Of a stretch of DNA of 52,776 bases, positions 48,105-49,662 are shown in pieces; the stretch's first letter is position 1; every line of letters begins with the position of its first letter. Source of the DNA: Candidatus Staskawiczbacteria bacterium (GTDB lineage: Bacteria > Patescibacteriota > Minisyncoccia > Minisyncoccales > Staskawiczbacteraceae); assembly GCA_943357015.1 (NCBI GenBank), contig CALRFZ010000001.1, forward strand, positions 1 through 52,776. The letters run 5' to 3'. Both the position numbers and the translations under genes were made by a program. The notes under the pieces were generated by a model. It had not been told where the DNA came from and ran no database searches. It was given only the letters and a program-made list of their open reading frames with translations.

Positions 48105-48752
48105 ATGAGTATCCAGACTCAGACCAACAAGTTCACGGCCACGATTCTGCAGAATCTCCCGGAAGTTCCGGAAGACATCATGCAGAATTGGATCGAGAAC
48201 CCCAAGGCGCTCCAAAAGCTCCTTTCGGGTCTCGTTCCTCCGGTCAACGGTTCTGCCACCGAGTTCAAGATCTGGAAGACCCTGAAGCTCCGTACGGGCA
48301 TCGATGCCGATGGCTATCGCAAAACCATCAAAGGCAAGAAGGTGGGTAGCAAGAAGATGGACATCGGCGACTACGCCAACGACATCCTCGGCAAACCCGC
48401 GTTCGCCGTCGTCACGGAAGAAACCGAACTCGATCTCGTCGTGGTCAGTGTCGCCGAACTTGGTTTCAAGAACGGAGCCAAGCTGAAGGACATCTACGAT
48501 CGGGCCAAGGAGAAGGGTCTCCAGCTTTGCCCGAACCAGGTTGGTCCTGAACTGCGCTTGCAGTACGAAGACCAACCCAACGGTGAGTGGCTCGTGATCG
48601 GCATGGAGCCGATTACCGACTCGGACGGCGGTCTCTACGTGTTCTACGTCGAACACAATGTCAGCGATCTGTGGCTCAGCACGCACTATGACTACCCGGG
48701 CCTCCTCTGGTTCAGCAACGATCGCTTCGTGTTCGTTCTCCCGCGCAAGTGA
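48105..48752 (+). CDS. DGR target protein 1 (C-terminal variable region); family unassigned
   Basis: 215-aa ORF with an AAGGAG RBS 8 nt upstream. It is GC-rich with GC3-biased codons. The last 46 codons are VR1. About 55-60% identical by eye to the next gene. No signal peptide or TM segment. Confidence 0.85.
   Translation: MSIQTQTNKFTATILQNLPEVPEDIMQNWIENPKALQKLLSGLVPPVNGSATEFKIWKTLKLRTGIDADGYRKTIKGKKVGSKKMDIGDYANDILGKPAFAVVTEETELDLVVVSVAELGFKNGAKLKDIYDRAKEKGLQLCPNQVGPELRLQYEDQPNGEWLVIGMEPITDSDGGLYVFYVEHNVSDLWLSTHYDYPGLLWFSNDRFVFVLPRK
48612..48748 (+). repeat. DGR variable region VR1
   Basis: 137 bp collinear with TR 50029-50165. I count 15 mismatches by hand, all at TR adenines (for example AAC to TAC, AGC, CAC, CTC or TTC). 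The 3' A-free tail tcgcttcgtgttcgttctcccgcgc is identical. Confidence 0.9.
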
Positions 48753-48848
48753 TCTTCAAGTTGTCTCTGGTAACTTGGAATCTGTGCTCTCTGTTGAGCA
48801 CTTGGTTTCTTGGAACCATCGCAACAAGCTCTTCTTGCATTTTCCAAA

Positions 48849-48932
48849 GGCCGCGGTCAGTTAACCATACTGATTCGCGGCCCCATTTCAGAGTAATTTA
48901 CCCAAAGTAGATTTTTCTGAAATGGGAAGCTC
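48849..48932 (+). terminator. Two consecutive hairpins downstream of target 1 (attenuator/terminator-like)
   Basis: Hairpin 1 is ggccgcg...cgcggcc (48849-48882), with an inner tcagt/actga pairing. Hairpin 2 is a 10-bp stem, ccatttcaga (48883-48892) with tctgaaatgg (48916-48925), followed by a T-rich tract. Confidence 0.55.
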
Positions 48933-48949
48933 TTTTATTTTTAAAAACT

Positions 48950-48997
48950 AGTCACAGCAATAAGTCCGTAACTTATTATTGATTTATTGCTGTGACT
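48950..48997 (+). promoter_or_regulatory. 5'-leader hairpin of DGR target gene 2
   Basis: Perfect 14-bp stem: agtcacagcaataa (48950-48963) with ttattgctgtgact (48984-48997). The 3' arm (gctgtgact) and the downstream leader (caagca..ggcgaaa.ccc..aagga.aaa.cgccATG) are conserved with target 1. Confidence 0.45.
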
Positions 48998-49050
48998 ACA
49001 TTTCGTGGTCAAGCAAAACTGGCGAAACCCTAACGAAAGGAAAAACCGCC

Positions 49051-49662
49051 ATGTCTCAAGACGCCAAGCTCGTGTCTCGTATCGCCGAGTGCCTTCCTGA
49101 GATGTCCAAGGAGCAGAAACAGGGGTGGATCGAAAACCCCAAACGGCTCCAGCAGGTCCTCCAAGTCTTGGCCGAGATTCCTTCCGACCCTAAGGTCTGG
49201 AAGCGGATCACCATCGGTACGGGACTGAACACCGACGGCCTTCGTCAGGCCATGAAGGACAAGGGCATGCGTATTAGTGACTGGGCCAACGACATCCTCG
49301 GCAAACCCGCCTTCAGCGTGGCTACCGAAAAGATGGATGTGGACCTCGTCGTCGTCAGTGTCGAGGACTTGGGCTTCAAGGACGGAGCTACGCTCAAAGA
49401 CATCTACGCGGCCGCCAAAAAGCGTGGCCTCGAGCTCTGCCCAAACGAAGTCGGTCCCCAACTGCGTCTGCAGTACAAGGATCAGCCGAAAGACGAGTGG
49501 TTGCTTATCGGCATGGAGTCGTTTACCGTCTCGGACGGCGATCTCCGCGTGTTCCACGTCGCGCACGATGGCAGCGTTCTGTGGCTCTACACGTTCTATG
49601 ACTACCCGGACGGCCTCTGGCGCGGCAGCGATCGCTTCGTGTTCGTTCTCCCGCGCAAGTAG
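49051..49662 (+). CDS. DGR target protein 2 (paralog of target 1, C-terminal variable region)
   Basis: Start set at ATG 49051 (MSQDAKL), by homology of the leader and RBS with target 1. The track's 48979 start would run through the leader hairpin. 203 aa. The last 46 codons are VR2. Confidence 0.85.
   Translation: MSQDAKLVSRIAECLPEMSKEQKQGWIENPKRLQQVLQVLAEIPSDPKVWKRITIGTGLNTDGLRQAMKDKGMRISDWANDILGKPAFSVATEKMDVDLVVVSVEDLGFKDGATLKDIYAAAKKRGLELCPNEVGPQLRLQYKDQPKDEWLLIGMESFTVSDGDLRVFHVAHDGSVLWLYTFYDYPDGLWRGSDRFVFVLPRK
49522..49658 (+). repeat. DGR variable region VR2
   Basis: 137 bp collinear with the TR. I count 23 mismatches by hand, all at TR adenines. The A-free 3' tail is identical. Confidence 0.9.

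Follow-up and report, generated by a model that had tools for sequence, protein, structure and literature searches.

We describe here a diversity-generating retroelement (DGR) that lies at 47.9-51.6 kb of contig CALRFZ010000001.1 (assembly GCA_943357015.1, Candidatus Staskawiczbacteria bacterium), which was analysed over its whole stretch of 52,776 nucleotides and is referred to below as the window. In our opinion this is very probably a complete chromosomal DGR of a bacterium of the Patescibacteria, or Candidate Phyla Radiation (CPR), with two target genes, T1 and T2. The two genes represent an old duplication, the coding parts of which have diverged to saturation at synonymous sites, and both copies are targets of one DGR, rewritten from a single template repeat (TR). 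The perfect state of their variable repeats (VRs) at all non-adenine positions suggests that this rewriting was recent. The elements follow one another in the order T1 and T2 (in tandem on the forward strand), the non-coding TR, the inverted accessory gene avd and, again on the forward strand, the gene of the reverse transcriptase (RT):

48105 to 48752 including the stop codon, + strand: target gene T1, 215 amino acids, an intact open reading frame (ORF).
48612 to 48748, + strand: VR1, 137 bp, which departs from the TR at 15 positions, each of them a TR adenine (repeat family D2).
49051 to 49662 including the stop codon, + strand: target gene T2, 203 amino acids, an intact ORF, its ATG chosen to match the ribosome-binding context of T1.
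49522 to 49658, + strand: VR2, 137 bp, which departs from the TR at 23 positions, again only at TR adenines.
50029 to 50165, + strand: TR, 137 nt with 40 adenines, in register with both VRs.
50201 to 50530, - strand: avd, 109 amino acids, Pfam bAvd PF22296 (E 1.8e-18), inverted with respect to the TR and the RT gene.
50572 to 51567, + strand: DGR reverse transcriptase, 331 amino acids, Pfam RVT_1 (E 6.9e-26).

The RT translation contains the motifs LGNLTSQ and YADD, which are the forms that I/LGxxxSQ and YxDD of DGR-type reverse transcriptases take here, and the accessory protein (Avd or HRDC) that accompanies such enzymes is present beside it as the bAvd gene.

The repeats were compared by ungapped alignment and by an independent repeat finder, and both gave the same three copies. 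The initial annotation had proposed that the two targets keep a common 137-bp VR frame on one TR, and indeed each VR matches 50029-50165 without a gap, and over the 137 nt every difference falls on a TR adenine (15 of 15 in VR1, 23 of 23 in VR2). The edges of the homology are sharp and lie exactly at 50028/50166. As also proposed there, the repeat finishes with an A-free tail (GC-rich, 25 nt in the TR, 50139-50163), and the VRs run into the last sense codon, ending at the second base of AAG with the stop codon immediately next. The repeat finder gave no further copy in the surrounding 7.5 kb, and a scan with the VR ends gave none in the whole 52.8-kb window, which thus holds three copies in total: two VRs in different ORFs and one TR, with adenine-only differences between them. 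Inside its 137 nt the TR has 10 AAC codons and 2 AAT codons, and one more AAC, the 11th, extends across its 3' end; mutation can alter 27 codons and turn none of them into a stop, and each target could in theory yield about 10^23 different proteins. The doubling of the diversified repertoire of one RT and TR, of which the initial annotation speaks, is a reasonable supposition.

Compared with each other, the two VRs differ at 22 of 137 positions, all of which are TR-adenine sites, and agree at all 97 of the 97 non-adenine sites, where some 35 differences should have accumulated had these sites diverged like the remainder of the gene. Twelve adenine sites are changed in both VRs, and the substituted bases at these sites are mostly different, which indicates separate homing events and not copying between paralogs. 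Thus the pattern points to VR1 and VR2 having been rewritten independently, each by its own homing from the TR.

Outside the VR the two genes are far apart. The whole proteins are 55% identical (BLASTP, E 4e-82); pairwise alignment of the parts outside the VR, which by eye had been put at about 55-60%, gives 56.7% identity for protein and 64.1% for DNA, with 49% of third codon positions identical and a single indel of 12 codons. The N-terminal third is the most diverged part (40% identity). By the Nei-Gojobori method the proportion of synonymous differences (pS) is 0.65 outside the VR, corresponding to a saturated synonymous divergence (dS) of about 1.5, and 0.033 inside it. The ratio of nonsynonymous to synonymous divergence (dN/dS) in the non-VR parts is 0.23, and therefore both copies are under purifying selection. 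The non-VR parts are clearly related, and neither ORF has a frameshift or an internal stop. An old duplication kept compatible with one template is therefore supported by the saturated dS together with the absence of any non-adenine mismatch in the VRs, and further by the grouping of each gene with its own orthologs in the tree. The duplicated unit, as the best explanation of what the copies share, would be about 950 bp long and comprise a leader hairpin, a ribosome-binding stem, the ORF, the VR and a 3' element.

Related genomes were surveyed by scanning a single genome from each GTDB species, which gave 293 loci (79 of them retrieved); a further 80 loci came from scanning metagenomes, and just 2 from scanning viral sequences (IMG/VR). 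Loci of this survey are referred to by L numbers. The T1 family comprises more than 600 clusters of proteins of about 200-215 amino acids without a Pfam domain, and its members come overwhelmingly from metagenome-assembled genomes (MAGs) of Patescibacteria. The usual cassette consists of one target, the TR, avd on the reverse strand and the RT gene, and about 50 cassettes with the RT in view were found (some loci from both scans may be the same contig). Single-target cassettes are thus the norm, and other two-target pairs do exist: besides the locus described here, two targets on one TR occur at L080/L090, L087 and L038 (where one copy is frameshifted), and two-target loci cut by contig ends are L001/L083/L091 and L065. 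The rarity of such an arrangement that the initial annotation implied was overstated, since about 13% of the DGRs catalogued (50 of 372) have two targets in the cassette, which is the commonest multi-target form (PMC5758913).

The most informative relative is L080. Its first gene is the ortholog of T1 (80% identity outside the VR) and its second gene is the ortholog of T2 (77%), it has a TR, avd and RT, and its VRs differ from its own TR at adenines in 20 of 20 and 13 of 14 mismatches. The tree places T1 beside its L080 ortholog and T2 beside L080_Tb and P0032, and does not unite T1 with T2. Since L080 carries an ortholog of each, the T1/T2 pair must have been inherited as a unit; the genomic neighbourhood of L080 differs from that of the T1/T2 cassette. 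The pair at L087 has cores that are only 50% identical and is served by one TR, with 20 of 22 and 23 of 25 mismatches at adenines. P0032 is a lone T2-type target in a cassette on a contig that is syntenic with the window at 25.8-33.6 kb. This contig and window positions 25855-33640 share the order Metallophos, SecD, SecF, a sigma/HARE-HTH gene and a 459-amino-acid gene; the single-target DGR of the relative sits between a 341-amino-acid gene and the 459-amino-acid gene, where the window has a spacer of 383 bp. A cassette at a site without a DGR in the window means that the cassette moves, or that it was gained and lost.

Copies that stand apart from a TR behave quite differently from T1 and T2. 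The MAGs of three single-target cassettes contain unlinked paralogs (L025/L028, L060/L046, L066/L052), which show 13-29 non-adenine mismatches to the TR, and hence a copy left unserved loses its compatibility. Such loss strengthens the reading that T1 and T2 are both served. We also considered trans-targeting of such orphan family members by the linked TR; the same mismatch counts leave it unsupported in the three pairs. At roughly half of the GTDB loci no RT or TR lies within 8 kb of the family gene, and many of these genes keep the leader hairpin and the 3' element. At two loci one target gene is accompanied by two TR-like copies, both with A where the VR differs: L003 (1466-1585 and 1989-2108) and L032 (8905-9024 and 9386-9505).

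Regarding the target protein, Pfam gives no domain, and no signal sequence is recognisable. The AlphaFold2 model of T1 (predicted local distance difference test, pLDDT, 86.7) begins with three helices, which a disordered linker joins to an alpha/beta domain; the VR forms the last three beta-strands. The best fold matches in the PDB are C-type lectin domains (Mincle, NKp65, DCAR2), and a C-type lectin fold is thus suggested by the model, although the matches are weak (E 0.04-0.5). The viral fold library gave no match to the target protein below E 0.5, and a profile search of the PDB gave none at E <= 10; a single-sequence PDB match to an arginase-family protein (E 0.011) was judged spurious. 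We may speculate that T1 and T2 plug the same variable head into different partners via their divergent N-terminal third.

On the 3' side, each target is followed by an element that the TR lacks, and the similarity of the two flanks noted in the initial annotation is confirmed (50 of 66 positions identical):

48753 to 48818, + strand: T1 3' element, CTTGG-type repeats around a small hairpin.
49663 to 49728, + strand: T2 3' element, which follows the family consensus and has an imperfect central hairpin.
49740 to 49783, + strand: hairpin resembling an intrinsic terminator (CCCCTC...GAGGGG, then a T run) after T2, read from the sequence; its loop is longer than the 8 nt to which the terminator scan was limited.

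The T1 hairpin, GTGCTC-tctgtt-GAGCAC at 48784-48801, lies about 32 nt after the stop codon and has 6 bp and a T-rich loop of 6 nt. The consensus of the element across the family is CTTnGnnCTTGGnnCCTTGGnTCTnTTTnGACCCTTGGnACTTnGTCCTT. Its stems vary and yet stay complementary (GGGTC/GACCC, GGATC/GATCC, GGGAC/GTCCC, GGTTC/GAACC). The hairpin was detected after anchoring on the CTTGG motif, by comparing own with permuted arms: the two arms of a locus are fully complementary in 11 of 36 cases, whereas exchanging arms among loci gives 3.6, which is a modest covariation. RNAalifold on the unanchored alignment of 3' flanks predicted no structure. By analogy with BPP-1, the element may mark recipient genes.

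Taking these observations together, we propose the following mechanism. An RNA would be transcribed that consists of a structured domain of about 230 nt, the 137-nt TR and a short 3' hairpin. The RT with Avd would copy the TR into cDNA, misincorporating opposite the 40 template adenines, and the cDNA would then replace the homologous 137 bp at the 3' end of T1 or T2. In this way up to 27 codons could be changed in the part of the gene that encodes the C-terminal beta-strands, the product being a small and perhaps lectin-like protein. The shared A-free GC-rich tail and the element after the stop codon would mark T1 and T2 as recipients, and the TR, having no 3' element, would be a donor only. 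Both genes, while under purifying selection, would still be overwritten from the single TR.

It may be argued that only one of the two genes is a live target and that the VR of the other is kept similar by gene conversion from its neighbour. Paralog conversion does occur in this lineage, as the two L080 targets have 3' flanks without a single difference over about 70 nt (5652-5722 and 6556-6626) despite a coding dS of 1.26, and the imperfect 3' hairpin of T2 would fit a gene that is no longer served. However, conversion would also copy the bases at adenine sites, and yet all of the differences between VR1 and VR2 are found exactly there, with different bases at most of the 12 sites changed in both. 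Besides, 3' flanks that are only 50/66 identical mean that no recent conversion tract crosses the region here. We therefore consider this explanation quite improbable. Even less probable, to our mind, is a recently dead DGR, in which both VRs would be frozen relics of past homing. The insertion sequence (IS) transposase right after the RT and the serine recombinase upstream do tell of a region in flux. On the other hand, RT, avd and both targets are intact, the catalytic motifs of the RT are present, there are 0 non-adenine mismatches in 2 x 137 bp, and the RNA domain before the TR is undamaged and departs little from the family consensus, while unserved paralogs in other genomes gather many non-adenine mismatches. 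Finally, DGR repeats often disturb metagenome assemblies, and several related contigs (L001, L065) end at a VR or TR, so one may ask whether the tandem pair was mis-joined or expanded from a population of VR variants. We regard such an artefact as practically negligible: with 36% of the aligned non-VR nucleotides different and a 12-codon indel, T1 and T2 cannot be strain variants, and the order of a T1-type and a T2-type gene recurs in independent assemblies (L080/L081, L001/L083/L091).

The reading of two live targets on one TR is thus the one we retain, and several points that weigh against it should be stated. Concerted evolution at L080 extends beyond the VR, and gene conversion between paralogs could add to the similarity of the VRs. 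The 3' hairpin of T2 (TGCCC/GGACA) contains one C-A mismatch, and the hairpins of this family in general, with 5-6 bp and a T-rich loop, are unlike the GC-rich 7-10 bp GRNA-loop hairpins of the BPP-1 type. The lectin-like fold, with Foldseek E 0.04 and template modelling (TM) scores of 0.39-0.46, is suggestive only. The contig ends 1.2 kb past the RT, and further TRs or targets may lie elsewhere in the genome. Current activity of the DGR, in turn, is deduced from one consensus sequence.

On the 5' side the common leader and the similar ribosome-binding context claimed in the initial annotation proved real: 78 of 106 leader positions are identical, and the same stem enclosing the Shine-Dalgarno (SD) sequence precedes T1 and T2. 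The features of this side are:

47919 to 47946, + strand: sigma-70-type promoter (TTGACA, 16 nt, TATAAT), 12/12 consensus with a TG extension.
47999 to 48050, + strand: T1 leader RNA hairpin, about 50 nt, 57 bits with the covariance model.
48078 to 48104, + strand: SD-enclosing stem (GGCG/CGCC), which encloses AAGGAG and abuts the ATG of T1, read from the sequence.
48851 to 48926, + strand: T1-T2 intergenic hairpins (48851-48884 and 48882-48926), inverted repeat I5.
48949 to 48998, + strand: T2 leader RNA hairpin, 54.8 bits with the covariance model (R1), with compensatory changes relative to the T1 copy.
49025 to 49050, + strand: SD-enclosing stem of T2, in the same arrangement as before T1.

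The promoter is conserved in the orthologous cassette L080; judging from its sequence, it probably drives T1 and perhaps T1 and T2 together. The leader hairpins stand about 55 nt before the ATG of each target, and that of T1 has an outer stem of 11-12 bp, an internal region that is conserved (AAAG/TTTC) and an inner stem that varies. In an alignment of 36 loci 95.5% of the cells are paired and 11 of the 22 pairs have compensatory changes; none of 500 shuffles reached the observed values, and slid controls pair at 31-48%. The + strand scores above the - strand, and a U-G pair is conserved in 32 of the 36 sequences, which points to a leader RNA on the sense strand. Over 1.02 Mb of related DNA the model matched only upstream of family genes, with exceptions in L070 and L028. 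The exception in L028 is a distant family member. In L070 the hairpin (8711-8773 and 9881-9929) stands before a pair of small neighbouring genes from another family, which is unannotated; their products have 288 and 213 amino acids and W/R/G-rich C-termini, and so the motif is not strictly tied to the target family. Nor is it indispensable, since in L080 the hairpin before the T1 ortholog is missing (deleted). A weak match to the model in the window at 29989-30031, the site of the relative's DGR, was merely a terminator hairpin. The 4-bp ribosome-binding stem covaries by eye across loci (GGTG/CACC, AGCA/TGCT, GGCA/TGCC, TAGC/GCTA). The sequence of the hairpins in the T1-T2 spacer is, by eye, closely similar to the intergenic region of L080, and these hairpins may be a processing or termination signal between the targets.

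The donor RNA appears to be organised as follows:

49800 to 50028, + strand: conserved structured non-coding domain of about 230 nt (alignment of 28 loci, RNAalifold).
50178 to 50198, + strand: hairpin followed by TTTT, a terminator-like match with 8 pairs, its position conserved in the family.

The domain upstream of the TR is strongly conserved over the 28 loci; 48 pairs are predicted for it, 38 of them with compensatory changes. The fold comprises a pair of hairpins that resemble each other, with CGGTTACGGCTT loops, as well as a long-range helix closing immediately ahead of the TR, and the direct repeat GCGGTTACGGCTTC occurs twice in the domain (repeat finder, D8). We presume that this domain is the 5' part of the DGR RNA, the extent of which is judged here from conservation and folding, and in this DGR clade it probably serves as the RNA scaffold, on the upstream rather than the downstream side of the TR. 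Downstream there is only a conserved stretch of about 12 nt and the hairpin at 50178-50198, which overlaps the end of the inverted avd gene. This hairpin might either mark the end of the TR RNA or, by analogy, be the stem-loop to which Avd should bind on the 3' side of a TR. The BPP-1 scaffold draws on sequences flanking the TR on either side, and its 140-nt downstream spacer contains the priming site as well as an Avd-binding stem-loop (10.1101/2023.10.23.563531). A search of 47750-50600 against Rfam at E up to 10 returned only chance matches to miRNA-type hairpins, and no RNA element was matched.

The codon usage of the targets is another peculiarity, running counter to that of the host. Values for the targets cover 48105-48611 and 49051-49521:

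GC content: targets 0.56-0.59; window 0.35.
GC at third positions (GC3): targets 0.77; the element's own RT and avd 0.41.
A at third positions: targets 8-10%; RT, avd, the serine recombinase and two chromosomal ORFs 25-39%.
Leucine codons CTC : TTA: targets 18 : 0; RT and two chromosomal ORFs pooled 2 : 53.

This is not a feature of one locus, as 88 family genes (L001-L079) have a median GC of 0.54 against 0.41 in their flanks, and the GC excess persists between orthologs at dS of about 0.9. Recent transfer of the whole cassette does not explain the contrast, because the RT and avd look native. Selection at synonymous sites, frequent exchange of the target module alone, or GC-biased conversion are possible causes. 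One family gene, L001_Tb, looks mosaic.

DGRs of CPR bacteria were reportedly first described by Paul et al. in 2017. In the articles that we consulted, from which that one was excepted, we did not find the leader hairpin, the TR-upstream domain or the codon contrast described. The targets of CPR DGRs are without transmembrane or other recognisable domains (PMC8144416), and by host and target our locus may be likened to the CPR clade-2 DGRs (Roux et al. 2021), which are cellular elements of Patescibacteria with a domain-less target.

Comparison with the prototype of BPP-1 (mtd-avd-TR-brt) reveals both likeness and difference. Common to both are the adenine-specific transfer from TR to VR, the VR at the 3' end of the target ORF, an AAC-rich TR unable to create stops, the GC-rich A-free 3' tail of the repeat, an Avd partner, an RT with I/LGxxxSQ, and a cis element past the VR that the TR lacks. 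Unlike BPP-1, the element described here is chromosomal in a CPR bacterium and not in a phage, has two targets and not one, and encodes 200-amino-acid targets without a recognisable domain or signal sequence. Its avd gene is in reverse orientation and separates the TR from the RT gene. A structured RNA of about 230 nt stands upstream of the TR with only about 40 nt of hairpin downstream, whereas BPP-1 makes use of the 3' end of avd on the upstream side and of a 140-nt spacer on the other. The hairpins after the VR differ as well. Here they have 5-6 bp, a T-rich loop of 4-6 nt, a position about 30 nt past the stop codon and flanking CTTGG repeats; that of BPP-1 has an 8-bp GC stem and a GAAA loop 4 bp past the VR (PMC3240598). 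In BPP-1 the initiation of mutagenic homing (IMH) sequence and the downstream hairpin are sufficient to define a target, and for phage DGRs the hairpin is defined as a GC-rich stem of 7-10 bp with a 4-nt GRNA loop, within 4-34 bp of the VR (PMC3240598).

That one TR serves two targets is well documented, and the arrangement itself is known. Multiple VRs, mostly with a single TR, occur in 28.6% of 948 DGRs (PMC6642488), and the multi-target DGRs of Treponema denticola, Legionella and Stenotrophomonas likewise have one TR and at least two VRs in separate genes. What our analysis adds is a clear dating of the pair and the demonstration that it is conserved as a unit. It goes beyond the multi-target surveys in that an old pair (saturated dS, 57% protein identity) is inherited as an orthologous pair across lineages and that T1 and T2 each keep their own leader hairpin and their own 3' element; we found no report of an old inherited pair, or of leader and 3' elements for each copy, in two such surveys (PMC5758913, PMC6642488). 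More novel, in our opinion, are four other features: the hairpin of the leader, the folded domain that precedes the TR, the element after each stop codon and the anomalous codon usage.

These suggest a broader idea, which we put forward tentatively and which we would ourselves rather doubt than assert: that in this CPR lineage the target is a self-contained and portable recipient module, made of the 50-nt leader hairpin, an ORF whose codon dialect is foreign to the host, the VR and a 3' recognition element specific to the family, which can be duplicated and kept on one TR, with the donor RNA scaffolded by the domain 5' of the TR and not, as in BPP-1, by a downstream spacer. If true, the locus would form a DGR subtype of its own, to which no fewer than two new RNA families would belong. 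Irrespective of that idea, the locus has two paralogs kept matched to one template long after the remainder of the genes diverged to saturation, whereas unlinked paralogs in related genomes lose the match to their TR. It thus offers an entry point to the questions of which cis elements define a recipient gene in this CPR clade, what RNA scaffold surrounds the TR when avd is inverted, and why the targets keep codons that are GC-rich and poor in third-position A in AT-rich genomes. The covarying RNA motifs can be used as search models for DGR targets and TRs in CPR metagenomes.

As for the neighbourhood, bacterial RNase P class A RNA is encoded at 36319-36662 (125.9 bits), which confirms that the contig is chromosomal. 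Directly adjoining the cassette upstream are genes of tRNA-Met and tRNA-Asp (46014-46238) and a large serine recombinase (46414-47733, - strand), and after the RT the IS transposase with an rve domain (51679-52776) runs off the end of the contig. The repeat finder gave no att-like direct repeats in the cassette region. A 17-nt inverted repeat around the cassette (47965-47981 and 51620-51636) was considered and is attributed to chance; it has no counterpart in the orthologous cassette L080. Some 4 kb upstream of the DGR, between two tRNA-Met genes, lies a gene (45624-45977) for a four-helix-bundle protein of the 23S rRNA-intervening-sequence family (PF05635, E 9e-28), a family that is related to Avd.

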